Assembly: GCA_051294375.1 (NCBI GenBank)
Contig: CM119267.1
Location: 17,090,606-17,154,605 of the forward strand
DNA length: 64,000 nt
Reading direction: 5' to 3'
Origin: Paraspadella gotoi
Lineage: Eukaryota; Animalia; Chaetognatha
Positions within the stretch are counted from its first letter, which is position 1. Every line of letters starts with the position of its first letter. The position numbers and the translations under genes were made by a program. Shown here in pieces: positions 842 to 64,000 of this stretch. The notes under the pieces were generated by a model. That model was not told where the DNA came from. It made no database searches and was given only the letters and a program-made list of their open reading frames with translations.

Positions 842-2248
842 ATGACAGAAAACATGTTCGGAGTGTTGGAAACTATCTCGGATCAGGCATCCCAACTTAC
901 TGCTTTTGTTGACAAATTGCGCGGCGATTTCGAGACGGAAACCTCAAGAACAGATGAAGCGAAAGTAAGGAAAACTAATGAAGTTTAATGATATCACTAT
1001 CGTATATATTATATAAAATATATTGTATATGCATCTTATTCTTTTTTTTTTTTCAGAATATCGGATTAAGCTATCTCGACGTGAAGAACCTGCTCTTGTT
1101 AAATTATAATTGTGACATTGCTCATGTAATTCTGTCTAAATGCAAGGGAAGGTATGATATTCCACTGAGGCTTAGTTCATTGTTTGAGGGGACGGTGACT
1201 AATTAATCTGTCATCGTTTCAGGTCCCTCGTCGATAACCCCGCCGTCGATCGATTGACGGAAACTAGGACGGTGATGGAAAAGACTCGCGGCGTTGATCT
1301 CAAACTGAAGTACCAAATCGAAAAGCTCGTTAGAGCCGCCACAGTCGAAACTCAAGGTTAGAAAGCGACCATGACCATTCTTTACTAGTATCGTTTAGTT
1401 GTCTCGAGCGGATCGTGCAAATTCTTGGCAATCGTCAATTCTTCAAGCTTCATAATTGTTTAGATAAAGACAATCAATGCAACTTTAATATAGGCGCGGG
1501 TAACGATCCTCTCAGCTTCCGCCCGAATCTGACCGGTTTTGACGAAGACGATGACGTTGACGGAGATGATGACGATAAAACTAAATCGAAAAAGGACGGC
1601 GTGTATCGACCGCCTAAGTTAGCCGCAGTCAGATACGACGGCGACGATACTGAGGCGGTGAAGAGGGAAAAGCGGGCTAAGATAAGGTCCAGGGCTGTCG
1701 CCAACGCTGCCTTACTCAAGGTATTTTTTTTTCCATTAAAAAAAAAATCACCCAATATTGGCGATGTTATTAGTTATAAGTAAACCTTTATTTCTTATTT
1801 AATGTAACATTGAATGTTTACTTATTTCGTAGGATCTTGATCTGGACCGTGAAGAGCCAGAGGAAATATTCGAGAACAACGTTCACCGGTTCAAGGAAGA
1901 TCGAAGATTAGCGGAAAGAACCAAATATGAAGAGGACAACTTCACTCGCCTTGTACTGACCAAGAAAGACAAAGGTGAGAACTTTTAAGTGATTCTTTGT
2001 GACATCTTTTTCGTTTTTCATTCTTGTTTTGCTTGTTCGCAGCTCGCATGAAACGGCTTTCCACGGCCTCCGCGCTCGGAGACGCGATGACCAACTTTTC
2101 CGGACTTCCCGCTTTGTGGCGGGACGATGAAGACGGCGGAGGCGGTGCGGGCGGAAAGAAGCCGAAAAAAGTTTCTGGTACCAAAAGAAAACTTTCCAAA
2201 GCCACCGCAAAGAAGATGAAAGCCAAAAAGAGAAAACGTTTTGCTTAA
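842..2248 (+). CDS. NGDN: Neuroguidin (Sas10/Utp3/Lcp5 family), multi-exon
   Basis: Joined exons give GLSYLDVKNLLLLNY, RLTETRTVMEKTRGVDLKLKYQIEKLVR, DPLSFRPNL, GVYRPPKLAAVRYD, KYEEDNFTRL and a basic C-terminal tail; GT-AG introns. Confidence 0.92.
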
Positions 2249-2378
2249 AAGTCCACTCTCTGTTACATTCGTTTTGAATCTTATCAGTTATTTCGTTACT
2301 ATGTATTTTTGTTAGCTTTTACAGATTTTGCATTCACTTTTTTGTGGATTAATATGTGGCATTTTGTACGCTCGGCCA

Positions 2379-4190
2379 ATGGAACTTCAAACTCTCAACG
2401 TTCCGGATAATCAACAGCGGTCAAAACGTTGGCAGGTTTGAAACATGAGAGATACAACTAGCCGTTGGTGTCATGTAAGAAATGCTATAGAAATTGTCTC
2501 CGAAATTAGGACCCCAGTGCGACGATTTTTCGGGAGCAATCTCTGACACGCGGCCCGATCAAAGGGTCCACCCCAACATCATTAGGAAAACGCGGTTCTC
2601 GGTCGCAACAACCTCTCGTAGGCGCTTCGCCCACCGCCTCGAGACATAGCGCCTTCACCACAGGTGTCCGAGGTTGACAGTTTAGGACACGATTTTTTCA
2701 TTGACCTCTAGAACTTGTGTACAGAATGGGTCGAACAGTTAAATAATTATTTATAAAAATCATTGCAGGGGGCAGCTCTACTGTAATTCTCCGCAAAACC
2801 TCGGACGCTTCAAGTAAAATGCCGTGTTGTCATTCATGTTGCGAGTGTCTCGGAAGAATTCCGTATGGATCTCTGCTCGCTACTCTCATTACAGGCATAA
2901 AACACAAACGGTTTTTGAATATTGTGAGAAATTTTGGACTAAGTTCGAATTTTCATTAATTAGGGGCGGGTGTTGGAGTAGCTTGCGTTTGCACTTCCAT
3001 CGGTTTACCTCATTTAGTGGCGATGTTGAGGGTAATTTTCTTATTTCTTATCGATGGATTCAGCGATATATATATATATAATATATATACATATATACGA
3101 GTACGGTCTTTTTTTAGGGTTTCAAAATTTCTATCAAAGATGGAGTTGAAGAAGCATTCATGACAGCCGTCGTATCCGTCGGTAATTTGAAATTATTATA
3201 ATAAACGATAATTAATCTGACCAAATGAAATTTATTGTGAAAAACGTTTGTAAAAACATCAGGGGCGGTAATGGCCACCCTTGCCGTCGTCCTTCTTATC
3301 ATCGGGTTTCTAGCTACCGGAGCGACGAGACGCCAAGTATACACTGGTAAATTCGGTCTATTAATGAAATATTGGGAAATTAATGTTACCTAAAAATCTT
3401 TCTCGTTAACTAATATCCTTTGATTTCTTAGGCTCGTGGTCTCGTATCACAGGAAGAATCGCCGCTGGTTTTTTCATCCTTCTTACTTACTTTCTGACCA
3501 TTGTTTGGTTCTTGGCCTGTTGTCTACTACTTATCGTGTCAGTCTTCTTTGTCGTCAGTGTTACAAATTGTCAGGTAATGTAATGTTACTCAAATATTAA
3601 TGCATTAAACTTTCAGGTTTGTAATATTGCTTTTTACTATTATTAAAATTCACTCACTTTTCAGTTGTACGAAAAAGATCAGCAGTGGGAAGGGAATTGT
3701 TTCAACGTGTCGACCATCGTGGAGGGCATTCCCGCCAACATCAACGTCGATCAACTCTCGACGAGGCTTTGTGGGGAAGAGTTCAAAGGTAAATGTTACT
3801 GGAAGAACGGACAACTTTGTCGTTTTTCATATCAGTTGATTTTTTTTGTCTCTTCAGCAAAAAATATTTTTCTGTTTAGTGAGCTAATCAAATTTTTTTA
3901 AACAAATTTCAAATTTTCAGAATACTGCGACGAGGCGACGCAAGGCCACCTCCTCTTCTACGCGGCCAACGGAGGCGTCGCTCTTATCGTCCTCGGTCTC
4001 ATTCACTTTCTCATGTGTCTGTCGGCCAACTATGCCCACATCAAAGGTTTGCTTTTGTTGTTTGAGTTTTGATCGATCCTTCAACAGTGTGTAAACAGTT
4101 TTACTTAATCCATTTTCAGACGGATTAAAGTTGCGGGAATACGAGGAGGCCAAGTATTCCATCGACACCAGAGATTACGCTTCGTTTTGA
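2379..4190 (+). CDS. M6: Myelin proteolipid / neuronal membrane glycoprotein M6 family, multi-exon
   Basis: CCECLGRIPYGSLLATLIT, IIGFLATGATRRQVY and LIHFLMCLSANYAHIKD are PLP/M6 signatures. The N-terminal extension from ATG 2379 is inferred from in-frame splicing; alternative start near 2819. Confidence 0.85.
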
Positions 4191-5597
4191 AGAAAAGCCG
4201 GGTTTTTTTTTCTGGTTAAGCTCTGTGGTGTCGAAATTACTCGCCGTGAAAATTTTAAATTTTTTTGGTGGCTTTTTTAAGTTTGTTCCTGGAAAACATG
4301 TCAAATTAGACGGATGAACTGAAGACTTTCTTATTAAAATTTTTCTCTTTGTTCTTTCATTTTTCGAGAGTTTTTTTGCGACGCATTGCGTTGAAATTGT
4401 ATACACTGAATTTTAAGAAAATATTATATGCTTAGCATTTATTCAATTATCATTATTATAAATGCAAAAAAAATGACACCTGTTCCGCTTTATTTAAAAT
4501 GTTTTGATAATTTTTTTTCCGCTACATTTTGATGTTTCTTATTTCAAATGTTTTGTGATAGATCAATTTTATTTTTTTTAGCATGAAGCTCGTGCTAACT
4601 ATGTGATTATAGCATTGCTCTCATTAACCTATTCAAACTTCCTTCGATTTTTTGTATAAAAGGGTTAGTATATACATTTTATAGTCTTTTTATCTGCTGC
4701 TCTTCTTATATTCCCCACATTATCATTGACAAAAATTACCTTCTTGTCCCGAGATCAATGTTTACTGTAAAGTTTCCGAGTCGTTATTCACATTCCATTT
4801 TTTCGCATTTACCAAAAAAGAGCAGATTTTCCAGAAATGCTTAGCACCCGGGTTAAATATTTTATATTTTGAATGCAAGCTGCTTTATATTTACCAAGAA
4901 CCGAAAAACAAATTACGTTTAAATGTCTTTGTCTTACTAATAAAAATATTTGCGGATGGCTTGCATAAAAAATCTTTAAAACTGGTGCTAAGGAAGGGTG
5001 GCGTACATAGAATTTTCTCAAAAACCCGAAAAGTGGCATCGTTTATCATATCAATGTGATCAACGTATAAAAAATATTCGTTTAGGTTGCTTTGCTGTAC
5101 CAAAAAATATATATATATATAAATTAACTTAGATTTTTCCTTGAGATTTAAACTAACCAATGATTAGGAAAACCTTTAAGCAGGTTTATTTTATTTTATT
5201 TATTGCCGACGATAACGCCTAGTTTCGTTCTCATTGTTAGGTTTTTAACTATTTCATGAAACTGTCGTGGAAAAACCAAAAACGGACTCCGTCAAAGACT
5301 CTTCGTTTTTCTAGATTCCCTTTTGTTTCTCGACGGAAGGGCTTTCCCAGCTGAGCGACGAAAAAATCTGTCACTTTAATTCCATCGCAACTGTGGCCGA
5401 CAGCTAAGATGCCAATGAACAGACGAAGCGTTGTGGCTGTGCTCTTGTTGAATGATGACGAGAATATATATAATAAATTTTGAAGATTAAATGATTTCAA
5501 CCAAACTTACGATATCGAACAATTACCGCAATTTAAAATTACGTTATCAGTATCTAAATTATTAAAGGGAAATAGGACGTCCGAAACAGTCGGGGAT

Positions 5598-8500
5598 ATG
5601 GAGTTGGATGGCGATACCCCGTTCATCCCATCGGAGACCACGACCAAGTCGGACTCGAATTCTCAAAACCCTGAACTGTCGCTGGAAGCCTCGCACGCTT
5701 CCATGCCCTCTTCGTCCGCAGAAAAATTGGAAGATCTCGATGATGACTGCCCCAGCCAAAAATCTTTGGATGTTCCATCGGTCGCTTCGGTGCATGCTCT
5801 TGGAACTGCCTGTGTTACTTCGGCGGAAGCCCCACCACCGTTAAAGACCTCCGAGAAAAACAGCCCGTTGTCTAAATCAGAGACGACGGAAAACTCGAAC
5901 AAAATAGCCAGATTGGAGTATGGGTTATCGCTTGGAGACAGGTCGGTTGCGTGGAAGGGTCTATAATTTACATTTTGTTGTCGCTTGACTCCTTGTGTCT
6001 CAAGTATTCCTAATATTTTTTACCTCCCAAAGGGTAATGGTCTCCAAAACTCGAGTTGGTTATATCCGCTACTTGGGCCCCACCGAATTCGCTTCCGGTT
6101 TTTGGGTTGGCATCGAACTCGACGAGCCTCGCGGGAAGAACAACGGCGTCGTCAATGGTAAAAAGTACTTCAACTGTCGGGGTCCTTTTTTCGGCCTTTT
6201 CTCACCCGTGGAAAAAGCCGTCAAGGTGGACGCCGCCGGTCGACGAGCCGCGCGAGGAGCGACTAAACCCGTAACCCGTGCTACTCCCGCCCACCATTCT
6301 CGTCTTTGCCGATCTTCATCTCGAGACTCTGTCAACTCGTTTCGTTCCTTCTCCTCCATGTCTTCCATCTGTTCCAACGTTTCCACCGCCTCCCTCTTTA
6401 CGGATTCGACGTCGCCTCTCGCAGCTTCCACGCCCGTCCCTCCCTCGCGTCCTCTTCGCCATGCCGTGTCTTATTCCAATGTGCATTCCTGTCATCATAG
6501 CACCGATACTACTCGAGAAAAGAGAAAGATCAGTCGCCATGGTGACGGAAACGAGGAAGAAAACAACAAGAGAAAACAGACGCCGGGTCTCGCCAAGACT
6601 CCACCGAAGCGAGGCTCGGCCGCCGTGGTTAAACCCTCGACCCCCACACCTTCTCGTCATGCCGTCAAACGGCCGTCCTGCGCCGGCGCGGGGTCATTCG
6701 CTGAAGTTCTGTCCCGATCGAATGTTAAATCGCGCGCCATCGCTTCACCGAAAGACCCCGGCGTCGTTCCGCTCTCACGTTCGTGTTCCTTCGTTCAACC
6801 GCCATCTCCTCGGTCCAAGGGCGGCTTCGATTATCCGCCCGAAGATTACGCCGACGACGCCACCCTTCGGGCGCTGCGAGCGGCGGTTTCCGAAAAAACG
6901 CAGCACATTGATCAACTGTTAATGGAACGTGATCTAGAGCGTAGCGAGGTAGCTAAGGCCGTGGCTGAAGCGGAGGAAAACGGAGTTAAATACGACGCCT
7001 TGAAGGTGGATTGGGAGGAATTCAGGATAGCGAAGCTGGAAGAACTTGAAGTATGGAGGGAAAGGACGGCAGAGTTAATAGAATCGTTAGCGAGTTGTAA
7101 GGAGAAGCTTTCTGACAAGGAACGAGAGTTCGAGGACGCCAGATTCCGGGCCGATGAACTCGAATTGAACATTCAAGAAATTCAAGACGCTTTGAGGTTA
7201 AAAAATGTGGAATCTCTGAGGTTAAACAACGAATTGGAAGAGCAAAGAGCATCCGCAATCGATTCTCAGGAAGAATTAAATTCTCTTAATAAGAAGCTTA
7301 ATATTTTAGAAAAAGAAAACGTCGATCTTAAGAATGAGCTGGAAAGCATATACTCGAATCAGAGGATTTCGGAAGAAAACGAGTGTCTGAAACGCCAACT
7401 TGCCGTAGAAGATACAAAAATTAGAGGGTTCCTTACGGAAAGCGAGGAATGTCAGAAGAAATTAAAAGACCAAACTGATGCAATTTATCGTTTGCAAGCA
7501 GCCCTAAATGAAAAAGATCTGAAAAATATAGAATTGCTGAAAAATTTGGAGGCAGAGGCCAATAATGCTTTGACCCTCCAGAAAGCTTTAGAAAATGAGA
7601 AGATCGTACATAGAGAAGTTCTTACGAAATTAAACGAAGAGACTAAAAAAAACTACTCCTTACAAAAAAATTTTGATATAAACGAGATTAAACTTAATGA
7701 CACTCTTAACTCATTTGATCAACAAACTAAAACAATTTTGACCTTAGAAAAATCTTTGCATGAAAAGGGCTTAAAACTTTCGAATTTGTCCTTAGAACGC
7801 GAGGAGTACGTAAAAAAGTTAAAAAGTCAAACGCAAATTTTACTTCATTTACAAAGCGAATTTGATAGCAAAGACGTGCAATATAATGAGTGCCAAAACA
7901 ATTTAGAAGAACAAATTAAAAAAACTTCCATTCTCCAGACAGCGCTTGATGTTAAAATTGTGGAACATACGGAATACTTAAAGAATACTGAAGTTCTCAA
8001 TGAAAAAATTTCGGAGTTGAAAAAGACTTTAAATGAGAAAGAGTTCGAGTATAACGAGTGCATGAAACGTTTGATGGAACAGACCAAAGTTTTTTCCTCC
8101 ATTCAAACGGCTTTGGATGAAAAAACTAGTGAATTGACCCGCTCTCTAGAAAAAAAAAAAGAAGACGAAGCTGAGTTTAGTCATCAACTAATTCAACTTT
8201 TTTCCCAAAACACACACATTCAGAATTCTCTCGAGGAAAAAGAGAGAACAATCGATGTTCAACTTCGAAAATTACAAGAACAGGATGTTACCCTAATAGC
8301 TCTTAAGAAAAATTTACATGAGCGTAATCATCAGGCGGAGTCATGGCGACTGAAAAATGAAGAGATGAATAAAGATTATGCCACTTTGGAAAATAGATAT
8401 GAATGCTTGGAAAGAAAAATTGAAGATTCAAACAACAACAGAAATTTGCCACAAAAACAAAGAACGACTATTCCTTGGGAAATGGCGGAAAGGAATCAGT

Positions 8501-9336
8501 TACCATGTTCTGATCCGAAATTGGAACCAAATAAAGAAGAAATAGAAAGAAAATATTTTACTGTGAATGAAGAAAAACTGGATTGTGTTAATGGGAGCTT
8601 AATTGAAAAAGACCGACGGTTAGAAACCAGAATGGATTTTTCAAAGGAAGATGAAAACCTTCCTAAGACACCTCAGCTAAACACGAAAAATTGTCAAATA
8701 AATTACTTTGATTCCATGTTTAAACCATATCCTGAAGAGCAAAAGAGCATGAGAGAAAATGTACAAAAATTTGAAATACACGGCGAAACGAGTGGCGATG
8801 CAAAATCGATTCAGATAGAGGATCTCAAACTAGCACCTATGAAATTGATTGAGAGAGTTAACGTGAACGAGCAAGACCAAATAATGGAACTTAAGCGGCG
8901 AATCGCTGAGTTTATCACTCTAGTCAGTTCTGAAAAAAAAATGAAAATAGACTGTGATAATAGCACAAACAGTGATCTATTAAATTTGTTTAAAGATTTT
9001 GAAATACTTCGTCGCTTAAATAAAAATAATTTCAATGAAAATTTTAAAAGCCTCTACCATGAGTTCGAGGCTGTAACCTGCAACCCGCCGTCCTTCAATC
9101 TAGTCAAACACAGCAATCTAGTCGAATCAAATCAAACGGATCCGTTTAATTTTGATATTAACAATTGCAATCCTCTTGAAAATATTAAAAAAGATTACCA
9201 GCTGATTATTCGTAGTGTTGAGTGTCAGCTTGACCGAGGAAAGCAACTTGGATTGCAAATGTCTTCATCGAAAAACAGTTTGGATAATCTACGCGTAAAA
9301 ATCTCAAAAATAAGGCAGCAACTTAATTGTCGCTGA
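5598..9336 (+). CDS. CAP-Gly domain coiled-coil protein, CLIP-170/CLIP-190-like (2 coding exons)
   Basis: CAP-Gly motif GYIRYLGPTEFASGFWVGIELDEPRGKNNG; CLIP-type SEKTQHIDQLLMERDLERSEVAKA; long coiled coil. One intron of about 90 bp at ~5942-6031. Confidence 0.85.
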
Positions 9337-9701
9337 GAAAGCCTTTTTTTCGAAGTGAATTTTTTTTAAAGCAGTATTGTTTTACGTACTTAAACTGCAA
9401 TAAATTAATGTTTTAAAATCGTTCTCGTTAATTTTTTTTCTAATTTAAATGCTTTTTCTGTTTTTTTTTTCAGCGTAATTTTGAGAATTCCATTTGACGT
9501 TTCATTCTTGAATTTTTTTTGGTTTTTCGCTAAGAGATTGCCTCCTCATCTCCTATCAATACATGAATATCGTGTGAACAAAAACTCACTTTTGTGGGGC
9601 GCGCAAAAATTGGTACAATCAGCAAGGCTCAGTTGGAGCCGTCTTGTCAGAAAAACTTGGTCAAAAGAAATCGCTAAAACGTGGTATTATTTCTGTCAAA
9701 A

Positions 9702-12700
9702 ATGGCGTCCAACGTTGTAATGAAGAGCCCTCATGAATCTGAGGACGAAGAGAACATGTCCGTACAGGAATCAGACGACGACGATGATAACGACTATCAG
9801 GTACATGCGTATCTTTGTAAATATTGAACAAAATCTTTTAAACGCATATAATTTTTTTTTCTTTTTGCAGGACTATTACAACCAAACTGATGATATTGGA
9901 GACGAAAACATCTTCGAAAAAGACCCAGAATTCTTTGAATATCGGGTAAGCTCATTTTTGAATCATTACTAAATTGTTTTTGAGAATTCATTTGGCGTGC
10001 CTAATTCATTTCATTACGCAATCAGTGTTTAACGGTTGAAGAGGTGGAGCGTCTCTTAAATGAACACGTCGCCGAACTCAGTCAAGAACTAAAAATTTCC
10101 CCCTCATTGGCCAAAATGCTTCTTCACGCTCATCAGTGGAACAGAGAAGCAATTGTATCTAGGTATCATATGAAAAGTTGTTGTAAGCTTATTTGACACA
10201 ATGAAAAATAACGTGGCGTTTCTGTCTCGTGCTGTTTTTGTCCTTTTAAAATTATTTCTGAGCCAAATTAATTGATTATTACTTTTGATAATATGTGCGA
10301 TATACACTACTGGACATTACTGTGTCTGACCATAACCCTTGACCATCAACAAAAAAGCTAACTAGATCAAAAATAGTAAAAAAGATGAAGCAATATAGCT
10401 CGAAACGCTTACAAAATTTTAGACCATTGCTTTTATAAATGCAAAAAAAAATATTAATATTATTAAAACAAAATTTTAACGATAACTTAATAGTTAACCG
10501 AAACCAAGATGAATATTTTTTACCCATCATTTCTTCAATTTATATGAATCATATGTTTGTAATTAGTCAATTAATCTAAATAACAATATGACAAATTCAT
10601 TTTCAATTTTTTTTATGAATGGGAAGTTTTTACTGCTTACTCCCCTTGTGTTTAATTATCTAATATTTTAGAGGTATTTCCAAAAACCTTATATAATTAC
10701 TATATTTTTCACTTTTTTTCAATTCTTTCAAACAAAAACAACATCATAAAAACATTTTAAATTAATAAAAAAAAATTGATTGAATGATTTTGGAAAAAAT
10801 ATTTTAAAACTTGAGAATAATGGATTTCGAGTTAGGAAAAAAATTTTGCAATTCAAAAAAATCAGCCTCTAGCCTTTCGATTTTTCTAGAGGCTGATTTT
10901 TTTATTTTTTGATATTTTGATTTTCTATGCAAAACCATTATTCTCAATGAGTATAGGTCGGAGGAAATTTTTTTCCAACAATTTGAAAAAATTTCAGCTT
11001 TTTTAATTAGGGCTTTTTGGGGAAATAAATAAATCAATTATTATACGATGGGTACATCTGAAAGTGATATGTCTCTAAATGACAAAAAATTTTCTTCAAG
11101 TTTTATTTTAAAATTTAAGTATTGTAGCAATAGAAATAAGTGAGATACTCCCGCTTTGCCAAAATTTTTATTTTAACAAAGATTTGTACTGCGTAGTTTA
11201 AAAAAAGTTATTTCATTAAATAACTTTTGAAAGAAAAGAGCTAGCAAGATGGGTGTGGTATCAAATTAAAGCCCTAATCATGGGACACCTTTCTAAAAAA
11301 GTTTTATTAAATTAAATCCATAAATCTTTACACAGCTTTTGTTTTAAATCAGAGTTAAAATTATAACAGTTTTTTGCTTTAAAAATTTTAATGAAGGCAT
11401 ATGAAATTTTTTATTTTTCTTTTGTAATTTAAAAAGGAAAGACTGAATTACATTTTGATTATTATTAAATTTTCTTTATTCCATAAAACTGCTTATATTT
11501 TTAAGTTAAAGTAAAAAACAAGCAAAAATTTATATTGTAGTTTGATAAAATGTCTTTTTAAATATCAAAAATGATAAATACAAAAATGTTTTCAGCTTGA
11601 TATAAACAGTCTGGACATCTACCTTCTTGTCTGTGAAAAAAAAATCGGCATTTTTATTATCTTTAACTGCAAACTAAAAGCTTGACACACTGCTTGTTTA
11701 TCATAATAAAGTTTTAAAAAATTATATAGCTGGCAATATATTTGACAAAGCAAGACATCATTGTGTTAAATTGTATTGATAATTTTCTTTTAAATATAGC
11801 AAGGAATTTAATTCTATTATTTATCATCCATTTTAATTAAGAAAATATTTCTCGTAATAGCCCATTAGAAAGGGTTCATTGACTGACTTAATGATCGAAT
11901 TTTTAGATATCTTTACTGCCCCCATTTCACAAGATATAAAAAGGTCATGGTTATCATGTCAGTAAGTCCAGATTATCTGTACCCTTTATACAACCTGCAT
12001 TCTGAATTTTCTTTTTTTCCCTTTCAAATGTATTAAAAAAAATTATTTGAGAGAACAATCGGCGTGGAGGATGCAATTGGTAAGCCTTAGTTACCCCACT
12101 TCCCGATCGAATTTTTAAATGAGGTTTTTTTTCCATCTATTTGAGACATAACACTAACTATTGGTACTATTATTTTTTAAATTTTTTTTTATTACAATTC
12201 TAGGAATAAATATGAATAAGTAACTTTTTAAAAAAATTTATCATCTTTCACCCTATATTCGGTCATATCTAAAAAACAAAAAAAGATTTTGCATTGATAT
12301 TTTGGATATGGACATATGAAACTATAACGTTTCAAAAATAAAAAGAAATATAATAATATTGAACAGTGAATTTTTTTTATGCACGGAACAGTAACGTTAC
12401 GCCATTTTTCATTGTGTCATTTAAGGCCGTGAAGACGTCATTTCTTCTTTTCACTGTTAACGTTTTATTTTTTTCAAGTAAACAATTAATTTTAAATGTT
12501 TTTAGTTACCGGCTCAACAAGGATAAACTTTTGGTAGAAACCGGAATTACCCCCTTTGCTTTTCCACGGCTAGAACATCTGGGATCCTCGCTAGTTTGTC
12601 AGGCTAGTATTTGATTCATGTGCCGTGCTTTATTAATGTGATAGGTAATATTTTGTTTTTTTCCAGGTCTGTCTCACACCAGTTCATCTAGAGGATGTTC

Positions 12701-14905
12701 GAAAATTATCCTGCGGTCACATGTTCTGCATCGATTGCTGGGATCAGCATTTTGAAGTGCAGGTAGGCATTGCCGCAATTTTCTTTTCGACAGCTGTTAG
12801 AATAAAATAAAATAAGTATTCCCCGATCTAATACTTAAGGGAGTGGTCTTTTCATACAATTGAAACATTCTTTGAAATATTATACCACTTCATTGATAGG
12901 GAAGCCAGGTACTCTGGGAGTGAATAAACGAGACTGTGAGAGAGTCTTGATTGAAAGCTTGCAGTGACCTGCTATGTCATTATCTTGTAAGAGTGATGGA
13001 GGCCTTAAACCACCAAAGCCTGTCCAAAGTCAGGGGCAAGATAGCTTATTTATTAAATGAATGGATAATTTTTATATTGGTTGTACCAATTTCATAAAAT
13101 AAAAGTCCGATAATGAATCTTCATGAAAGTTTCTTCCCGACACAGCTTTGACATAAATTATATTGACAGTAAATCATCTAATTATTATTGAATTCAGATT
13201 CAACAAGGCGTTTCCTCAACGGTTCAGTGCATGGGACGCGAGTGCCAAATTCTCGCCCCTGAAGGTAAAAACGTGATTCTTAAAAATGTTACATTGTTCG
13301 TTTGGTAATTCTAAAAAAAAAAAAAATTGTTCAACTTCTACTTAGATTTTATACTCGATCTCCTCTCAAAACCGGAACTTCGGGAAAAATATCAAAAATT
13401 CGCATTTCGAGATCACGTGGACAGCCACCCTCATTTACGTTGTTGTCCAGGTGTAGCAAATTATCCAGTATCGATTAATACTTTAAAATGATTAAGTTTG
13501 CGATCAACCTTACATTCTCTTTGAAATTTTAAGGTCCGAACTGCCAAATGATTGCGCACGCCAAGCCTCCCCGCGCCAAAAGAGTTCAATGTAAAGTTTG
13601 CCTCACCTCCTTCTGTTTTCAGGCAAGTCGCGCGACAGTTCGTCTTAAAGCGCTAGTTATATTCATGCCCCAAATTCTATCTTTTACTTTCGTTAGTGTG
13701 GAAACGACTACCACGCCCCAACCGACTGCGACACCATTAAGAAATGGCTCACGAAATGCGCCGACGATTCTGAGACGGCCAATTACATTAGCGCACACAC
13801 AAAGGACTGCCCGAAATGTAATATTTGCATCGAGAAGAACGGAGGGTGTAATCATATGCAGTGTTGGAAATGCAAACACGATTTTTGCTGGATGTGCGCG
13901 GGCGATTGGAAAACTCATGGAAGGTTAATATTTGAAATAATGATTAATTACAAGATAAAATGTAATTGAATTTTTCGACACAGTGAATATTATGAATGCT
14001 CGCGCTACAAGGAAAACCCTAACATCGCAAATGAGAGCGCCCACGCAAAAGCTAGGGAAGCACTGAAGAAGTATTTGTTTTACTTCGAGCGTTGGGAAAA
14101 TCATGCTAAGGTAAGCTGTTTTAAATTTTAATCGTTGATCCCATTTAACAAATGACGACGTTGTATGTATGTATGTATGTAATCGACTAATCATTTTGTC
14201 AACCTCAGTCGCTGAATCTGGAGTCTCTATTCAAATCGAAAATCAGCGAGCGCATCAACGAGAAAGTATTGGCTTCTGACGGAACTTGGATCGATTGGCA
14301 GTATCTCATCGACGTCGTCAACGTCCTTACCAAATGCAGGTAAAACATCCCGGATTTTAATTTGATTTAAGTCCCTCGCGAGTGCATTACCGACATTTTT
14401 GTCTCAGATATACCCTTCAATACACCTACCCGTATGCCTACTATATGGAGACTGGCCCGAGGAAAAACCTCTTCGAATACCAACAAGCTCAGGTGAAAAA
14501 AAAATGGTTTGAATAATGTATGACTTCTCGTTTTTTTTTATATTGTTCAAGTTTCGTGGTTCATACGAATGTTTTTCCCCCCTTTTAGTTGGAAGCTGAA
14601 ATTGAAAGCCTCTCGTGGAAAGTGGAGCGAGCAGAGTCTCACGATCGAGGAGATATCGAAAACCAGACCGACGTCACAGAGAGGTTAGATTGCTTCAACC
14701 CTGTTTCGATTACTCTGGAGGGCGTCGTATTGGTGTTTTTTCCTTTTTAGCATCATGTTGTCTGGTTTTTTTAATTAATGAGATGAAAAGGTTAATCTGA
14801 ATGACCTTCCTTTGGTGATTTTTTGATCATTCATTCAGACGACGGATAACGCTGTTAAAAGACTTTAACGACGGATTTCAATGCGCGCCTCCAATGTCTG
14901 CGTGA
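9702..14905 (+). CDS. ARIH2: Ariadne-2 RBR E3 ubiquitin ligase, multi-exon
   Basis: Acidic N-terminus, [11 protein letters not shown]1 CQVC...[13 protein letters not shown] and RING2 ([48 protein letters not shown]), Ariadne domain. Confidence 0.96.
10195..12418. mobile_element. Non-autonomous TIR DNA transposon, copy 1 (in an ARIH2 intron)
   Basis: Ends GACACAATGAAAAAT...ATTTTTCATTGTGTC with ~38-bp imperfect TIRs; flanked by the 4-bp direct repeat ATTT (10191-10194 and 12419-12422); AT-rich with no long ORF; near-identical to 21091-23328. Confidence 0.93.
13012..13143. repeat. Short dispersed two-module repeat, copy in an ARIH2 intron
   Basis: 13012-13095 is the reverse complement of 46467-46551; 13098-13143 matches 46418-46463 directly. 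Confidence 0.85.
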
Positions 14906-14906
14906 G

Positions 14907-14933
14907 TATTATTATTATTATTATTATTATTAT
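14907..14933. repeat. (ATT)n microsatellite just after the ARIH2 stop codon
   Basis: Run of tattattatt... seen directly. Confidence 0.9.
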
Positions 14934-33303: not shown

Positions 33304-33473
33304 GTCGACAGATTCTATTTGTATGCAATTGTTCGCGTTATCGTTTCATTTTCAACTTCGAATCGTTGACTGTTAATTGTTTTTCTCCCGATTTACTTTT
33401 TCATCATACGTTTTTACACCATCTTTAGCGCGATTCGCTTTCGAAAATCGCTCAACTTTATATCTAAATTAAT

Positions 33474-40177: not shown

Positions 40178-44609
<4,432 letters not shown>

Positions 44610-48200: not shown

Positions 48201-49088
48201 TGCAATGCCGCAGATTCGCGCAGAACCATCGCGGTTCGGGTCGTACTTGTGTCGTGCTCACAACACTGTGGGCTCCACCGATTTCATTGTTCAACTCATA
48301 GACGCCGACCTCATCGCTAAAGAAGGCGCCAAATATCAAACGGCGCTCATCGGAGGCATCATAGCCGCCATCCTCATCGTTATCATCATTTGTTTGTTAC
48401 GTGAGTTTCCTAATCTTCCGCTGTCGCCTCCTTGATCGTTTAAGATTATCGAGATAGTTATCAAGATTGTTTTCATGGAACCAGCGTTAAAAAAAATCAT
48501 TAGCGTTTCCACTTTCCGCCCAGTGACCTACTTTTTACGAAATCGAGAATCCAAGTCTTCTCCTCAATCGCCAAAGCGCCGGTCGCCTTCAATCGAAGAG
48601 GAGGAGAAGAACCTCCAAGTCAATCACGACGACACTCCTTCCAACGAAAAACCGGTGAGGGGGGGGAAAGGGGGGGCGGATGTTTAGCAAAAGTCTTCTG
48701 CTCAATTTATAATCCTTGTTAAACTACGATGCAGCCGAACGATCGTTTGATCTACGCCGACGTCACTCCCACGAAGGAACCCAACGCGAACAATCCGCTC
48801 ATTCGAAACAAGGCCCTACCCACGGTTTGGATGCTTTGTTTTAAAACTTTTTCTTCCTTTAACTCGTTTCGTTGAGACTTGAGAGCTTGAAGTTGAACCT
48901 ACGTTTTAGAAATTTTTTTTTCAATTCTACAATTCGACCTTATATTTTTTTTAATCCCCCAGGACTATGCTGTGATCGACTACACGCGAAATGGCGGTAC
49001 GCCGGCGCATCGACGCCCTGTCGGCGGCGTCCCCGTCTTCGCGGGGCTCGAGGGAGGCTTCCGCCCGATGAAGTCCACTCCCATTTGA
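45273..49088 (+). CDS. Ig-superfamily single-pass adhesion/receptor protein (nephrin/sidestep/echinoid-like architecture)
   Basis: Signal peptide; Ig motifs (LPCDY, GIYKC, GNPPAKISM, CTASQANPRATITW, GSYLCRAHNTVGS); transmembrane helix LIGGIIAAILIVIIICLL; cytoplasmic LIYADV and DYAVI; ends STPI. Confidence 0.82.
46418..46551. repeat. Short dispersed two-module repeat, copy in an Ig-gene intron
   Basis: Matches 13012-13143 with one module inverted. Confidence 0.85.
48171..48201. repeat. Partial copy of the short dispersed hairpin repeat
   Basis: ataatttttatattggttgtaccaatttcat is identical to ~13065-13095. Confidence 0.8.
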
Positions 49089-50905: not shown

Positions 50906-51211
50906 ATGCCTTCGGTAGAAAAAAGAGCTTTCAAGGATTTTTCATTCAAAGACGACTCTCCGCCGTTAAAAGCACTCAAAACAAACGATTTAAAAAAGTG
51001 CCAAACAAAAACCGTCAATTCTTCTCAATTCGCCAATGATATTCACATTGAAAAAGACAAAAAGACCATTATGCTTCCGATTTCTGCATTCTGCTTTACT
51101 TCCAAGTACCATTCGTCTCGTTCATTTCAAAATCAGGAAAGCTCTAGCATTTGTCAGCGATGCTTGTCGGGAGAGCCCGGACATTTTCGTCATATTATTA
51201 GTCACCTATAA
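50906..51211 (+). CDS. Small intronless protein with a C-terminal CxxCxxGExGHxxH motif (C10orf143-like)
   Basis: CQRCLSGEPGHFRHI resembles the remembered C10orf143 tail CPRCIAGESGHFSH; acceptor-like ctctatag at 50838. Confidence 0.6.
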   Translation: MPSVEKRAFKDFSFKDDSPPLKALKTNDLKKCQTKTVNSSQFANDIHIEKDKKTIMLPISAFCFTSKYHSSRSFQNQESSSICQRCLSGEPGHFRHIISHL

Positions 51212-52428: not shown

Positions 52429-55099
52429 ATGGAACTGGCACGAAGACGCCCCTTGAAGAAGCGAACGGAATCGAGTCCGATCCGTTTCGACGTCAAACTC
52501 GATGACTCCGTCATCAATTCCCCCAAAAGAACGAAAAGGGATCATGGCGCCGTCATCTCGGAAAACTTGGATCTCTCTTCCGTCAATTGGGGTTCGCAGG
52601 TTAGTCCATGGTTAGCTTCGGTTCGTACAGGTTCCGTTCGGTTCCGTCCTCGATACAATGGGAAGGGGAAATTTTGCCGGGAGCATCATTAGAGATATAT
52701 GTTGTGTGAAATTAGATCTAAAAGTCCCATCTTCCCGTTATAACGATTGTGTTGGTCCCGCTACCTAGGGCCCCAAATCGCCCGGCGTCACGTGGGATTT
52801 TTCCTCGCCGTCTCCGTCTCAGTACAAACGATTCACGCAGAAGAGTTTCGCGCGGAGAGAAGAGGAATCGAAACGAATCGCCGATCAGGTCCGATTGAGT
52901 TTGATGCTCACAGTTCCACCTTACGGATCAGACTTGGTCATTACAATTCTCAACGGCTTCCATTCTCAGATGAAAACGGATGGAATCAAAAGCAAATTCC
53001 TCGGAACGAAATGTTTCGACAGAAAGAAAGACGTCGGCGACTCGGAGAGAATTTCCATCGCCGAATTGGCTCGACTTAGCAAAAAGTCGCACTTTGGTAT
53101 TATAATTATAAATGGGGTAAAATTGCTTTTAAATTTTCTTTTATTCGGTTTTTATCTTAATGCATTGAGTTTTCCTTTTGGTTTGGATTCTATTTTATAT
53201 TTCTCTTCATTGCAGAACCCGTGCTCGCGGCATCGGTAGTGAGCATCGATGAACAACGGGCTTCGATATTCGAGGAAGTGCAAAAGCTTTGTTCGGAATT
53301 GCAAGCGGTAAGACTTCTGTTTTTTTTTTTTTAGGAAACTGTCTATGTTTGGACTCTTGACGTTCCTGCTTCATTTCCATCCTCAATTCTTTCTTCACCC
53401 TTTTCAGGAGAAGCGCTCGAGACTGGAGACGAATCGCGTCGCTTCCCTCGACGCCGGTCGCGCGTCTCCCAATTTACCTCTTCTTCTTCCTCAACGGTTG
53501 GATCTCGACGGCGAGCTTGATTCCGAGGATGAAAATAACAACGAGGACGAGACCCTCGAGGCGAATCGATCTTTTCCCCGACCCGAAAAGTCCGTCAGTC
53601 CCGAGTTTCCTGAATCACCGTCCGACGACAACTGTGAGTATTATTTGAAAAACAAATTTCCACTTTCTCCTTAAATTTTAGATGAAATTTATTGGTCGCT
53701 GTATGGAATGTCTTATACAACCGGTTTCTTTTAAGATCGCGAGTCGACGACAATCGCAAACGACTGGTCCGAATCGGATTTGGACGATTCTCTTTTCCTG
53801 AAAACTGCAACTCAAGCCGAACAAGCATTCATGGTCGAGCAGAATAAAGTAAGTTACTTCATTATGAATTTTATTTTATGATTTTATATTTGTGTGTCCC
53901 CTCAGGTCGATTCTCCCATCACCCCGGCTGCATTGGGGTCTTCCTCGGTCAAAAAACGTCTCTCGCTCGGAACGCCAAGAAGCGTGCGTCGCGTCGTAGT
54001 TGACTTGACGAGGGACGAGGGTGGCGCCGGTGGTGAAGACGCAGGGGACGCCGTCAAGGAGTCGAGTAAACACCAGTCGGCCGTCGACGGGATCGCGCTG
54101 CGCGTCTTCGCCGATGTTACCGAGGACCGCGAAAAGCCCGTCAAACAAACTGGAGCGATAGAACATCTCAATTCTTCTTCGATTTTGATGAGCGATTTTG
54201 ACGACGACGTTGACCTCTCGGTCATTGAGGCTGCGTCTCAGGAAATGAGCAAATCGGGGGCCGCGTCCCGTGCCGAGTCCAACGCCGCGTCGAGATTTTC
54301 CAGTAACAGTGCGTTACACGGATCACGATCCATGACATCGAAATCTTTATCCTTCGGTTCGGCGACGACTTCGCTAAAATCTAGAGAAGCTGATTTTGGT
54401 GTGGGGAAGATGTTTGAGAAACCGTCCGGTGGGCTTAGAACCATGGAGGACTCAATTTCGGGGCGGAAGTTGGTTCCGGACAAAATCGGCGCTTCCTCGA
54501 GACAAGGAAAGACCGAATATAGCTCTGGAATGGCGGGCTGGAGCGACGACGACATCGACGACGAAACACTGGCCACACTGATCGAGGAGATCGAAAGTCC
54601 TGGAAAGTCGGAAGCCGTGTTCACCTCTTTAGCCTCCGCTTCTGGCGGTCCTACGGCCAATCTTCCTCTCTCGAAGAAATCCTTACCGCATTCCTCTTCG
54701 TTTCCACAGTCTTTCAGCAGCAACGTCTCTGCCCATTCAGGGGCTTCAAATTGTTTCAAGCCGAAATATAACCCTATCGTCCGCTGGGGATCGAAGTCCA
54801 AGTCTTCCAACTTTGGTCGCGCTTACAAACCGGTGGCCTCTCTGGGTGCCTCTACCGTCGGCGCTTCGTCCGTTTTCAAGCGGCACCAGTCGGCGACGCA
54901 ACTTTCCTCGCCGAAGCTTAACCCTTCGGTGCCCAATCGTTCCAAGACGCCGGAACCGATGAAGAACGACTCCTTCTTCGACGACGACGACCTGGACGGT
55001 ATTGACGACGACGGAGAATTGGTGAACCTTTTTAAAAAAGCCGACGAAATTTGTGAGGCCTTCAACGCTACGCAGAGGAGCCAATCCTCGCTCAAATGA
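52429..55099 (+). CDS. Disordered Ser-rich protein with acidic-hydrophobic motifs, possibly ETAA1-like
   Basis: Multi-exon frame; VTWDFSSP near the N-terminus; repeated motifs DLDDSLFLKTATQ, FDDDVDLSVIEAASQ, WSDDDIDDETLATL and FFDDDDLDGIDDDGEL. The gene is well supported; the identity is tentative. Confidence 0.6.
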
Positions 55100-55399: not shown

Positions 55400-57138
<1,739 letters not shown>

Positions 57139-57481: not shown

Positions 57482-59531
57482 ATGAGCCGAAATCGCCATC
57501 ACGACATGGCTCATCACTCATACGCGGGAAATCATCCAACCTTTCATTCAAACTATGCTTATCACCAACCTCACAATTATCACCAAGAAGTTCCTCATCC
57601 CGGTGAGCAAACCTCTTAGACGATGAGGTCTTTTGTGACAATGAATTGTAAAAAAATAATGATATTTCTATTAATCATACGAGCAGCAATCGGACGAATC
57701 GGATAAAAGTCCACCAATATGTAGTACTTGTCAAAAAAATTGATCCCATTTAACTTAGGACATCACGCCAATCATTCCATTAGTTGCTACACTCCTACCA
57801 CTCGATCATCCGACATATCCTCCAGATCTTCTAAATATCCCAGACAGCCGAGAGGTATGTACCTTTACTTTCTGGTTTCCGTTTTTGACTCTTTTGAGAT
57901 GAAATTCATTATTTTAGGTTGGGGATACAAGTGCCTTCGTGGATTATTTTCGTCGTGCAATTTTGTATTCTGGCTTTTGGGATGTGCCGTCCTTGGCGCG
58001 GGCGTCTGGTTGCATTTTTCAAAGGTTTTGCATATTTGCATATTTACTTAACCTATCATGGTAACTATTTAAGGGTGTTTTTCCCTTATCAGTCGGAATA
58101 CCACGCCGTTCTGCCCATATCCACAAATGATTATTTATGCAGTGCCACCATTGCTATTGCCATCGGTAATCGATCGTTGTTTGATTGCGATGTTAATGAA
58201 TTCTTGGCGATGATATCATTTTTTTCACCTTAGGTGCTACAGTTTTGGTCGTGGGCTTTTTGGGCTGCTGCGGTTCGTTGATGCAGGTGAGTTTTTTAGA
58301 GCCTCCGCACTTTAACCCTACTTGCCATCTTTGCCTCTCACCCGCTTGTCCCGCTTCCGCCAGATTCGTTGCATGCTGCTCGCCTACTTCATTGTCGTCA
58401 TGATGATCGTTTTGATTCAGTGCGGAATCGGCTTGATGGGCTTCGCTTACAAAGGTTCTCTTCTTTTTGTTGATCATAAATAAAAATGAATTGGATTAAT
58501 CTTTATTCCGTTCCCCTGGGCAGACGAGATCGATCTTTCCGTGCGAACTGAACTCATGAAAACGATCGATATTGCCAAGAAAAGCGGCGGAGTCGCTGGC
58601 GATCGCGTCGACGACGACGGCGAAAGAATTCGTAAAGCTTGGGACTCTCTGCAGAGGTAATGCATTATTCAATCCTCTGACATTAAAAATACAGAGGTGA
58701 TGAAAATTTTTATTCACAAGAAAAACTTGTTTTCATCAACTCGCAAAAAATGTTTTTTTCCCGATCTCTTCAGGGATTGGAGCTGTTGCGGCGTAGACGA
58801 TTACAGCGATTGGACGGATTCTCCGAAATCAACTTTCGGCGACAAAATCATCATGGCCTACTCTGCCTTTTCCAGTTCCCGGGTTAGATCATTCGGCGGT
58901 GTAATACATCGGGGACCATTTAATACCAGTTTTCCTGATTCTCTTTAAGGATCACCACCGCGGATCTAAGAAGCACGGGACACGGCACGGAATTCGGCCC
59001 AAGAAGGAGGACGTGCTGTTTGTTCCAGAGTCTTGCTGCCCCGCTGAGGCTTTTGCCAAATCTCAGAGGAAGAAAAAGAAGAAAGACCATATTTTTTCTT
59101 GTAACACTGGTATTCCAGTGTCTCACTTGAAGAAAATAGTCGCTGGTTAGGAAAATAATGATGGAGAATATACAAATACCGTTTAATTAAATTAAAATTA
59201 AGTTACATAAGATAAAATTTTCATTTTAATATCAATATTTTTTTTGGTCAGATTCTACCGTCTCCACTCATATTCCGGTTCATATCAAAGGCTGTTATTC
59301 CGGATTGAAGCAGTGGTTTTCAGCTCATCAGTCCTCCTTCTCCTACTCCGTCTTGGGATTGGCCATTCTACAATTTCTCGCCCTACTCGCTGCCATGATG
59401 CTTTTTTGCATTTTAGGAGAATATGGCAGGTTTTGGTAATTTGTTTTTTCCACGAAAAGTTACTGAGAAAATTTAGAAATCTCCCGAAAAGCCAAGTACA
59501 GCCTTGCATTTATCAGTTTTCTTTTTATTAA
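57482..59531 (+). CDS. Tetraspanin
   Basis: NFVFWLLG, GFLGCCG, large loop WDSLQRDWSCCG...VPESCC...KGC, four transmembrane helices. The stop is at 59439 if unspliced or 59531 if a 47-bp last intron is removed. Confidence 0.88.
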
Positions 59532-60465: not shown

Positions 60466-63400
60466 ATGAGCGAGTTGCGATGGGAGGATACTAACAACCT
60501 GCTGCGTCATCGCGGCCTTAATCCTATTCCTGTGGCGAACGAGGATTACAAGGCGAGTTAGCCGGCAAATATCTGATGCGAACCATTGGCAGAATCAACG
60601 AATCCGCGCGAGTCTCTCGCCATTCTTAAAAGCGAACGCCATGTCGTTGATCTAGTTTCCCTCGCATTTCGCAGGACCCGATACAATCCTCTGATGATGA
60701 CGACGGCCGAAATCCCAAAAATGTCGTCATTTTCGAAAAGAAATCTTTGTCCGCCATTCAGGACACTTTACATCGGCTCATTGACGACTGCGACCGACGC
60801 CAGGTTTTCTTTTAGCTAAATTTTGCATTTTCTACCGGCTCACTCTCTCACCCACCCTCTCCTATCATTATAACTCTTTCATCTTCCTTGCGCCTAAGGA
60901 TATTAAGAGCGAATTATAATTTTAATCTTCATTAGGGTCTTATCACGGATTTGATAAAAACCAACAACAATTTGCGAGAAGAATTAAAAGTCGCGAAAGA
61001 GCGTTCGCCGTCGTCGTTCGCACCTCCGGTTGAAGCCCCAACTGCCGTGGTTTCTGGAAATGTGAACAATAACAACAATAACGACGCGTCGACCCATGGT
61101 ATTGCTTAAATGGGAAATTTTGTAGACTTTTTTCCCTTCAACTTGATATTTTGAATACAGCTAAAGACTCGGAAGGACGAGCGACGAGAGCTTTTCCCCT
61201 CCTGCGGCAAGAACGACCAGGCCACTCGCAAGGAAATGCAACGATTAAAGCTGAGAACGCGGCGAAAGAATTAAAGGTATCGGACCATTGGTACGAGCAC
61301 GAAAGGATCATTAAGCAATAAGTAGTTTCGTTTAGAAAATTAATTCGATCAGGAAATCAAGCGACGATTATTGGAAATGGAGGCGGAGGAGGAGCGACGT
61401 CGCCGACGCCAGGACGTCATTTTCCGACAATTAAAGAAAAGATCGGCCCGGGGCTCCAGCTCGAACGATGCTAAGATGCTCGACGTTATCGATATGTACG
61501 AGAGGGAGTTGGAGAGGATCGAAAAGGATCGAGGATTAGGTACCGAGTTATTTAATACTAAGACTATAGCAAATGACTCATTAAAATTACAATCCAAATC
61601 AGAAACGCCGTCTTCCCCCGCGTCCCGCCTTTCTTCTTCCCCCGCTTCTGTCGTGGCTTTTCCGCCGAGCGCTCGGACGAAAATCATGGAGAAACTTCCG
61701 AGCGCTCACGGGAATAATCCTCACTCGACCTCTCCGGTCGTTTCGATGAGGAATTACGACAAGGAGCTGCGGGAGGCTGAGGAAGCGATGAGGGGATGGA
61801 AGTTGGAGATGGGGAGACTCAAAGAGGACATCGAGTCGAGACCCACGGTCGATGACCTCGTCTCTGGTGAGTAATAAGTTTTGAAAGTAATTTGCTGCAT
61901 TTCGTCGTCGCAAATTTATACATTTATTGGCACTATTTTACTTTCGCCGACTGGAACCGAACCAGTCAGTTATTTTTCTATGCGCATATATCATTACCGT
62001 GGTTCAATAGTACAAGAAAAAAAGTAAAGTTTGGGTAAGGTTAGTGGTATTTACGGTTAAGGGTTTTTTTTTTTTTTGCGCAAAATCTTTTTTTACGAAA
62101 AAAAATCCCCGACCGAGAAGTTCCTAAACAGTGGACAATTTTACCGATTTATTTTTTATATAATAATTTAGTTATTATTATAATTATTATTATTTAATAG
62201 CGCAAAACAGAATCTTGGAACTGGAAAAGAAACTGGAAGCGGAGAAAAATTCTGGCCTCGGTCACCGAGATTTAAACTATTCACCTCGATCAGGTGGTTA
62301 TAAAGGATTAATAAAGGAAATTTATAAAGGATTGTTAGGCTCAATCTTTATGAACATATTCGTCTTTTTCTAACGGTCGTAGCAGGCGTCGACGAGGCGG
62401 TGCTATGCTTGGATAAGTTAAAGGAAAAGCTCGGGGTCTCGTCGTCGTTAGATGTCGTCGGAAAAGTTGAACACCTCGCGCAGACGCAGAGCGACGCTAA
62501 AAAAGCCGAGAAGGTTCTTAGGAGAATCGCCGACATCGTCGACGGCGACGAGGTATCATTTCAAGTAATAATATTAATTAGTTTTTTCAACTAAGAAGCA
62601 TCTTTATCATTCGTTCTAGACATCGAAACACAAAACGTGGTGCAATTCGTCCAACCCGAAATTAATAGAAACCTTGAAAAGATGGCGAGTGGAAGTGACT
62701 CAAATCGACGCGGCTCAGAAGACGGCCGAACAGCTTCATCTCAAGCTGTTGGGGGAACCGTTTCAGTCCACCGGAAAGACCACAACTAAAAGCGTCGTTC
62801 GGATTTTGGGTTAGGCTTCCCCCCAAAAAAAAACCCTAATACGGATTAGTTGACGAGATTTACAAATGATTGAATATTGAGCACTTGTGCAAATTATTCG
62901 CAGAAAATCTGACAAAGAACAACTCTCTCCCATCGTTCGAAAACGCGAAAACGGTGAAAGAAGCTAATTCGCGGACGTTGACTGTCATCGTCTCTCATTT
63001 TCAGAATCTTTTCGACGTGAAAGAGGTTGAGGCCATGATCTTCATGTCCGTCATTTATGATAAATACGTATATACATAATCTTTTATTACCCTTATATTC
63101 TTTCTCAGCTGCCTAACGTCGTCACTCGCATAAATGACGTATACAACAAAATAAACGAAATGCAAAACATCATGAAGGCTCTTCGCGAGATTTTGGGTTT
63201 GACCGAGAAAAGTCCGGGAGGATGGGCCGTCGTCGATGCGGGTTAGACGTTTTCGTGTTAATTACTTTATTCCTAGGCGAATGTAATTGGGCGGTGTAGT
63301 TTTTTTATCGGGTTAACTTGTCTCAAAATAAATTAATTTAGCTTGTTGACCATCGATGTTTTTTTCTTTCAGTGGCCCAACTCTCAAATGCCGTCAATGC

Positions 63401-63623
63401 GACGGCGACTCGTCAATTGCAGGAGGTTTTGGGCGTCAAAGACCTGGAGACCGTCGTACAACAAATCGGAGAGCATCAAGAGTTCTGCCCAGTCTTTACT
63501 ATCATTCTACAGAAAGTCATGGAAACGCTTGTTGTTGACAGTCCCGACAAAGTTCTACCTGCTATCCAGTCGTTAAAACTGTTAGCCACTCCGGCACCTG
63601 TACACGACATCGTTGAAGTTTGA
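60466..63623 (+). CDS. CEP70: Centrosomal protein of 70 kDa homolog
   Basis: WEDTNNLLRHRGLNPI, KMLDVIDMYE, IVSHFQNLFDVKELPNVVTRINDVY, HQEFCPVF...VLPAIQSL match remembered CEP70 blocks. Confidence 0.82.
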
Positions 63624-63866
63624 TTCCCTCGCCTCTCTGTTGATAGTTTTAGTATATTAGTAGTCTCAAGATTGTTTTTAAACGCTCGGTGTAATATTTT
63701 TTTTACCCGTTTGTATTTATTTTTTGAATGCTTAAATTTTTTAACTTCTCTCTCTCCAAAACTGCCTTTTATTCGACAATCTACTCAGTTTCCCCTTTCC
63801 ACGAATCGCCTGCGGATTTCCCCCTTCTTTCGCCAAAATTTTCGCCCGCCCAACGGACATTTGCAT

Positions 63867-64000
63867 ATGAGTCAAAAAGTGGAAAAACCTGTCCTTCAAG
63901 GTCAACGCATCAAGACCAGGAAAAGGGATGAAAAAGAGAAATACGACCGAACTTCGTTCAGGGATGCAATTTTCCAAGGATTCTCCGAAGCCAAGGATCT
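63867..64000 (+). CDS. BZW: eIF5-mimic protein (BZW1/BZW2, krasavietz), N-terminus only; runs off the window
   Basis: [35 protein letters not shown]. Confidence 0.9.

Follow-up and report, generated by a model that had tools for sequence, protein, structure and literature searches.

A one-strand array of at least 17 unrelated genes in the chaetognath Paraspadella gotoi, probably a chain of operons resolved by spliced-leader trans-splicing

How is a long row of unrelated genes, all pointing the same way, transcribed and divided into separate messages in an animal genome? The question is raised by a 64,000-nucleotide stretch of the Paraspadella gotoi assembly GCA_051294375.1 (Chaetognatha; contig CM119267.1, positions 17,090,606 to 17,154,605), hereafter the window. 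A first-pass annotation, made from the letters alone, had described there a unidirectional array of about 20 genes, possibly one polycistronic unit of almost kinetoplastid-like length resolved by trans-splicing. We confirm the layout on a single strand, with 17 solid genes and three doubtful open reading frames (ORFs) arranged head to tail on the plus strand over 63 kb. The array resembles the spliced-leader (SL) operon system of chaetognaths in its working and is very likely part of it, and its at least 17 unrelated genes probably represent a chain of several head-to-tail operons, interspersed with a few individually promoted genes, that SL trans-splicing resolves. Both SL trans-splicing and operons are known from this phylum; what may be new is how long the co-oriented run is, and that another chaetognath sample shows something similar.

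Against the 19 genes called previously, we count 17 solid genes, listed below, and three doubtful ORFs, all on the plus strand. The 17 genes are unrelated, in agreement with the earlier view of them. The run is open at both window ends, with no strand switch in 63 kb. Pfam matches at E ≤ 0.01 were obtained for 18 of 37 plus-strand ORF pieces, 14 of them above the curated cut-off. No credible gene was found on the minus strand, as had been claimed: 52 of its 58 ORFs of at least 90 amino acids were scanned with Pfam and none reached the cut-off; the other six overlie plus-strand coding exons, and the single borderline match (E 0.01) overlies TBCK. All 29 splice junctions examined (28 RNA joints and one inferred) are on the plus strand, 27 being GT..AG and two GC..AG; GC-AG introns are three in number, at 12603 and 13623 (ARIH2, RNA joints) and at 2895 (M6 model). 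The genes are not intronless, as 58 cis-splice joints in 1-20000 and 13 in 29300-37150 demonstrate. The tested exons of NGDN, C14orf119, TMEM241, ETAA1-like and CEP70 had no matching Pfam family, and their names are taken here as presumptive.

842..2248, plus strand: NGDN-like gene, 308 amino acids, earlier name; open spliced frame, within an RNA contig by exact length match
2379..5222, plus strand: M6/proteolipid gene, 338 amino acids, with a 1-kb 3' untranslated region (UTR); Pfam Myelin_PLP, frame with ATG 2379 in frame, RNA contig
5241..9470, plus strand: CLIP-like (CAP-Gly/coiled-coil) gene, stop 9336; Pfam CAP_GLY, RNA contig
9702..15200, plus strand: ARIH2 gene; Pfam IBR, 12 RNA joints, RNA contig continuing to 16424
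18262..19387, plus strand: MRRF gene; Pfam RRF, 3 RNA joints
19636..29002, plus strand: multi-Tudor gene; Pfam TUDOR in 5 pieces
29539..30590, plus strand: C14orf119-like gene, earlier name; 3 RNA joints, 2809-nt contig
30812..32256, plus strand: TMEM241-like gene, earlier name; 2 RNA joints
32386..33428, plus strand: MIIP gene, stop 33303; Pfam MIIP, RNA contig
33429..39805, plus strand: RSRC2 gene, ATG 33474; Pfam SMAP, RNA contig
40178..44609, plus strand: TBCK gene; tblastn with relatives, every segment on the plus strand
45273..49088, plus strand: Ig-domain membrane protein gene; Ig-domain relatives, sequence read directly
52429..55099, plus strand: ETAA1-like gene, earlier name; 396-amino-acid last exon, start frame
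55400..57138, plus strand: cathepsin F-like gene (CTSF); Pfam I29 and Peptidase_C1
57482..59439, plus strand: tetraspanin gene, 3' end approximate; weak Pfam Tetraspanin matches
60466..63623, plus strand: CEP70-like coiled-coil gene, earlier name; ORFs, weak Pfam PF23620
63867..64000, plus strand: BZW/5MP gene, first 44 codons; Pfam HEAT_5MP1_2, candidate acceptor AG 63788

Transcription across gene boundaries was followed in assembled contigs of one RNA run (X1) from one study of the same organism, compared over 27,851 of the 64,000 bases. X1 was recognised as RNA by its spliced joints, and depth was not used for gene ranking; stretches without contig cover (29300-29452, 18141-18419 and most of 35966-37075) were not used as evidence. 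Long pieces of X1 contigs match the window without differing letters; two other runs, X2 and X3, gave three and one short matches. The search for RNA spanning the spacers was positive at four gene boundaries, each crossed by spliced contigs, with longest bridged paths of three genes. A contig of 7292 nucleotides (nt) is continuous over 1-964, across AG 773, with 3315 letters extending beyond window position 1, and accommodates 1878 letters, just the length expected of NGDN and M6 after splicing with an uncut spacer between them. Another, of 2809 nt, carries C14orf119, TMEM241 and MIIP plus both spacers.

Both contigs terminate on an AG, the former on AG 5222, with 30 further letters, and the latter on AG 33428, with seven unmatched letters beyond. 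The CLIP contig begins at 5241, right after AG 5240, as deduced from record length, and the RSRC2 contig at 33429, right after the AG, by depth arithmetic and without the 30-base overlap expected of a continuous path. The 1065-bp gap between M6 and CLIP thus narrows to 18 nt between contig ends, and that between MIIP and RSRC2 to zero. Three of ten located contig end sites are on an AG (p 0.011). The letters beyond AG 5222 and AG 33428 may be poly(A), with a leader presumably joined after these AGs. Contigs beginning exactly at AG+1 are compatible with a leader that ends in a base other than G; the 26 chaetognath leaders listed in PMC2481426 all end in AAA.

A leader was encountered on a relative of the last gene of the window. 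Searching metagenomes with the beginning of BZW yielded 151 relatives, the best 80 of which were retained, and among these 80 loci the best one, L001, has 93% amino-acid identity over 42 residues and 87.7% nucleotide identity to the window over 146 nt including the 5' UTR (bit score 183 versus 119 for the next locus). The first 19 bases of L001 agree at every position (19/19) with the 3'-terminal bases of the SL2.0 leader, given in Table 3 of PMC2481426 for Spadella cephaloptera and Flaccisagitta enflata, and BZW is therefore trans-spliced in this relative. Indirectly, this leader makes a chaetognath origin of the window very likely. Of the 80 loci, L001 is the one with this start, and the window itself lacks the 19-mer; apart from BZW, no window gene had a match among the 80. 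An SL RNA gene, implied by the proposal of trans-splicing, was sought within the 64-kb window only, where neither it nor a leader-like match, tRNA or curated Rfam match was found.

These observations meet a well-documented background. According to the main text of PMC12460157, 10,197 of 21,072 P. gotoi genes are trans-spliced and 18% are in operons, the longest of nine genes at a 250-bp cut-off. The text of PMC2481426 (2008) states that several genes of a Spadella bacterial artificial chromosome (BAC) are clustered in a common orientation, and Table S5 there gives 24 rows for the 158 kb of BAC 35A21, of which 19 are on the plus strand, four on the minus strand (three labelled transposon and one with the same gene number) and one is blank. 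Every one of the 14 cellular genes with a name is encoded on the plus strand, over 120 kb; long one-way runs may therefore be typical of the phylum. It should be added that this BAC was chosen because it contains an operon, that its list is restricted to predictions with a SwissProt match, and that the columns were read from the PDF layout. In the Spadella RPS14-PCNA operon, three bases separate the poly(A) site and the next acceptor (PMC2481426). An operon-specific leader is not reported in the accessible parts of PMC12460157 and PMC2481426. The words "strand" and "orientation" do not occur in the main text of PMC12460157, nor was anything relevant present in three of its supplements, and no genome-wide statement of long directional clusters in chaetognaths was found in the literature within reach, which excluded most subscription papers.

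The ten stop-to-ATG spacers quoted in the first-pass annotation were reproduced exactly, at 129-372 bp: NGDN-M6 130, CLIP-ARIH2 365, MRRF-Tudor 248, C14orf119-TMEM241 221, TMEM241-MIIP 129, MIIP-RSRC2 170, RSRC2-TBCK 372, ETAA1-like-CTSF 300, CTSF-tetraspanin 343 and CEP70-BZW 243 bp. To these we add longer gaps absent from that account, namely M6-CLIP (1065 bp), Tudor-C14orf119 (536 bp), TBCK-Ig (663 bp) and tetraspanin-CEP70 (1026 bp), and the two longest, ARIH2-MRRF (3061 bp) and Ig-ETAA1-like (3340 bp), each containing one doubtful ORF. All 12 sites listed earlier as ending T-rich tracts before gene starts do end in YAG (773, 2324, 9473, 18261, 19530, 32369, 33428, 40077, 44766, 50838, 55206 and 60389); for the Ig-domain gene, 506 nt separate AG 44766 from the ATG. 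AATAAA and ATTAAA are absent from 7 of 11 spacers shorter than 400 bp, a count with no background rate behind it. The spacer between C14orf119 and TMEM241 is the only A-rich, not T-rich, one among the short spacers, yet it is bridged by an RNA contig.

Support for SL trans-splicing and operons in the array thus comes from their publication in chaetognaths, from the leader of the BZW relative and from contigs that bridge genes or break at AGs. We suggest the following mechanism. RNA polymerase II would read through from one gene into the next; introns would be cis-spliced, and a 36-nt leader ending in A would be joined at each unpaired AG. The upstream message would end at the acceptor AG or no more than about 20 nt from it, so that the gap between messages would be near zero and the 130-370 bp "spacers" would mostly be UTR. 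Genes devoid of promoters would survive only behind a same-strand neighbour, which could drive the formation of long one-way runs.

A number of observations weigh against this interpretation. The leader comes from a relative in a mixed sample, not from the window's own transcripts, and its junction in L001 is 10 nt upstream of the AG aligning with 63788. Contigs stem from one RNA run of one study, and a contig across genes is not the same as a single transcript molecule. The AG+1 starts at 5241 and 33429 rest on length and depth arithmetic; 7 of 10 located contig ends are off an AG; and among 17 loose contig ends viewed (302 others were not), none was at a gene start or carried leader or poly(A) letters. 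AG 773 and AG 32369 give no direct sign of trans-splicing, because the path is unbroken at the former and no second contig was found at the latter. Using a scoring model trained on 29 acceptors, with dinucleotide shuffles as the null, acceptor motifs exceeded shuffles at p < 0.05 in 2 of 19 spacers (combined p 0.039). The median best score was 7.8 in spacers versus 6.9 in 14 control UTR or intergenic pieces, and scores were higher on the plus than on the minus strand in 16 of 19 spacers. The listed YAG sites are all present, but the acceptor motifs barely rise above background, and alone they are weak evidence for an operon array, because T-rich UTRs readily yield such motifs; the spacer at 30591-30811, between C14orf119 and TMEM241, has no acceptor-like site (score 0.2). 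Finally, several of the gaps could contain promoters.

Chance has also to be considered. For 17 genes, random orientation gives a probability of 1.5e-5 (about 4e-6 had been claimed for 19), a small value tempered by the selection of the window. Furthermore, the operon counts of P. gotoi alone predict about 0.7-1.1 runs of at least 17 genes per genome, and 0.1-0.2 runs of at least 20. As the window was picked out, and given this expectation, it is by itself no proof of an unusual genome. Under the same operon-count model, the Spadella BAC pattern has a chance of about 0.001.

These expectations favour an explanation in which most genes possess their own promoter within the upstream neighbour's 3' end, the leader is added to single-gene transcripts, the run is the tail of the distribution of run lengths in the genome, and bridged contigs reflect read-through or overlapping UTRs. 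Near-background acceptor motifs agree with it, as does the statement in PMC12460157 that operon calls cover a minority of the trans-spliced P. gotoi genes, and contigs can indeed fuse overlapping messages. We regard it as unlikely, given that gaps of zero and 18 nt, from the AG end of one contig to the start of the next, leave no room for a separate promoter, and that the BAC offers a second sample improbable under the same model, with the reservations on its choice stated above. The opposite extreme, one or two very long kinetoplastid-style units of 10-20 or more genes with message levels set post-transcriptionally, would suit the missing strand switch with both ends open, the 7292-nt contig running past position 1, the M6 3' UTR that reaches within 18 nt of the next acceptor and so fills even a 1-kb gap, and the uniform orientation of the BAC genes. 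It appears quite unlikely to us. Several units in a row, rather than one, are indicated because the longest bridged paths comprise three genes, because gaps of 0.5-3.3 kb intervene, one of them with a GC-rich island, and because the C14orf119 contig begins at 29453, not at an AG. Moreover, about half of P. gotoi genes are trans-spliced and the longest operon has nine genes, and genes for M6, an Ig protein and a tetraspanin are part of the array, whereas operons tend not to include genes of signalling and the nervous system (main text of PMC12460157). What stands of the single unit of about 20 genes is therefore the layout, at least 17 co-oriented genes.

The multi-gene RNAs could also be stable uncut messages, the downstream frames of which are translated through reinitiation or leaky scanning. 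Fully spliced contigs bridging four spacers and the missing second contig at AG 32369 speak for this, as does the C14orf119-TMEM241 spacer: as it has no acceptor, this pair may stay dicistronic, as a possible stable message. Leader joints, however, are among the short side branches that contig building discards, contigs break at an AG at two boundaries, and the BZW relative has a leader; plausible for one pair, the explanation is very improbable for the whole array.

Returning to a chain of SL-resolved operons, its closest likeness is with the operons described for chaetognaths in the available text of PMC2481426 and PMC12460157. There, likewise, unrelated housekeeping genes stand head to tail, the gap from message end to next acceptor is near zero (as would hold here), and the same leader family is found on the BZW relative; the reported operons comprise up to nine genes at the 250-bp cut-off, in contrast to at least 17 genes over at least 63 kb in the window, including genes of neural or signalling type. 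Operons of Ciona intestinalis, as far as presented in PMC1488885, have upstream messages ending on the AG that serves the following gene as acceptor, which in the window would apply to two sites; they are mostly without AATAAA, similarly to the short window spacers, and draw on one leader pool for all genes, as in chaetognaths. They mostly consist of two genes (mean 2.08, PMC1488885; up to seven predicted, PMC7986045), so that the window run is longer. In Oikopleura dioica and Caenorhabditis (accessible parts of PMC11067885 and PMC7986045), head-to-tail, loosely related housekeeping or germline genes are likewise resolved by a leader; their intercistronic DNA measures 23-30 nt or about 100 nt. 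Nematodes have a separate leader, SL2, for this purpose, whereas no operon-specific leader is reported for chaetognaths in the sources cited above.

Directional clusters of trypanosomatids, as summarised in bioRxiv 10.64898/2026.07.29.740908, share with the array a long series of unrelated genes in one orientation and, probably, the use of leader splicing. Same-strand runs average about 2 genes in animals (525 genomes) and about 30 in trypanosomatids according to that source, and the window run of at least 17 is far above the former and nears the latter. Window genes, unlike those of trypanosomatids, are intron-rich, trans-splicing is absent from about half of the chaetognath genes, and the window layout is known from one stretch. 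The array is thus not a kinetoplastid unit by membership, being intron-rich, yet it resembles one in layout, and the kinetoplastid-like cluster put forward in the first-pass annotation gains independent support from the Spadella BAC in this limited sense. A broader proposal is tentative, and we hold it to be possible, though not probable: chaetognath chromosomes might consist of kinetoplastid-like directional clusters with tens of intron-rich genes, few promoters and leader splicing at near-zero gaps, with operon calls undercounting them where long UTRs push neighbours beyond the 250-bp cut-off. If true, no animal genome with such a layout would have preceded it. Two chaetognath samples show runs of 17 (window) and 14 (the 2008 BAC) genes against the animal mean of about 2; should this hold genome-wide, it would represent an animal part-way to trypanosome gene organisation, and would bear on how trans-splicing reshapes genomes and on the loss of ancestral gene order in trans-splicing lineages.

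Apart from the solid genes, the window contains the following features:

16566..18183, plus strand: doubtful ORF region with several short frames; unspliced 1003-nt contig at 17138-18140
35966..37075, plus strand: doubtful single-exon ORF of 369 amino acids nested in an RSRC2 intron; ORF only
50906..51211, plus strand: doubtful short ORF after AG 50838; no Pfam match, low codon score
52003..52215, strand unassigned: GC-rich island, a candidate for a promoter within the array or for a short exon, in a gap of 1.2 kb

The region 16566-18183 had no Pfam match and gave an Atlas lead only (0.86); it is possibly a decayed gene or element transcribed along with its neighbours. The ORF nested in RSRC2 has one C2H2-like motif, no Pfam match and C2H2 leads in the Atlas below 0.9. 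A codon model applied to 17 gaps, which mostly measures GC and cannot separate strands, found no hidden multi-exon gene. It flagged two GC-rich islands, 33993-34238, an RNA-confirmed plus-strand exon, and 52003-52215, which scored alike on both strands. Within RSRC2, at 33715-34505, an alternative acceptor at 34050 and one contig retaining intron sequence were observed, a pattern resembling the regulatory extra exons of splicing-factor genes.

The closest relatives of TBCK reach 88% on one exon, and named animals among the best 120 matches 45-51%, a spread that suggests a bilaterian lineage with few sampled members. A tunicate source was considered and rejected, since no tunicate stood among the best named TBCK matches and the leader of the BZW relative is a chaetognath one. 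The metagenome scan with TBCK P0001 gave 77 pattern matches, none of which was confirmed. Two TBCK relatives, P0009 and P0012, are on contigs of 8582 and 6727 nt, which is 2-3 times the coding size, and these may be multi-gene. Contigs with relatives of RSRC2 (2312, 1779, 1282, 935 and 2414 nt) and of the Ig-domain gene (1984, 1812, 513, 816 and 1433 nt) coincide with neither of the two and are uninformative on linkage.

Introns of the array also harbour repeats. A repeat of about 290 bp at 12811-13096, in an ARIH2 intron, includes a Twister-P5-like ribozyme motif at 12992-13034 on the plus strand, with 25.8 bits (below the cut-off of 37.6), E 0.0017 for the local stretch and a folding energy no better than that of shuffles. 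Partial inverted copies are located at 46467-46556 and 29181-29236, a shorter piece at 48171-48201, and very many X1 contigs match the repeat, which we put forward as a lead for a candidate ribozyme-bearing short retroelement. An AT-rich non-coding element of 2.2 kb occurs in two copies, at 10195-12418 in an ARIH2 intron and at 21091-23328 in a Tudor intron; these are mostly 94-97% alike, have the same orientation and are bounded by terminal inverted repeats of about 38-45 bp.

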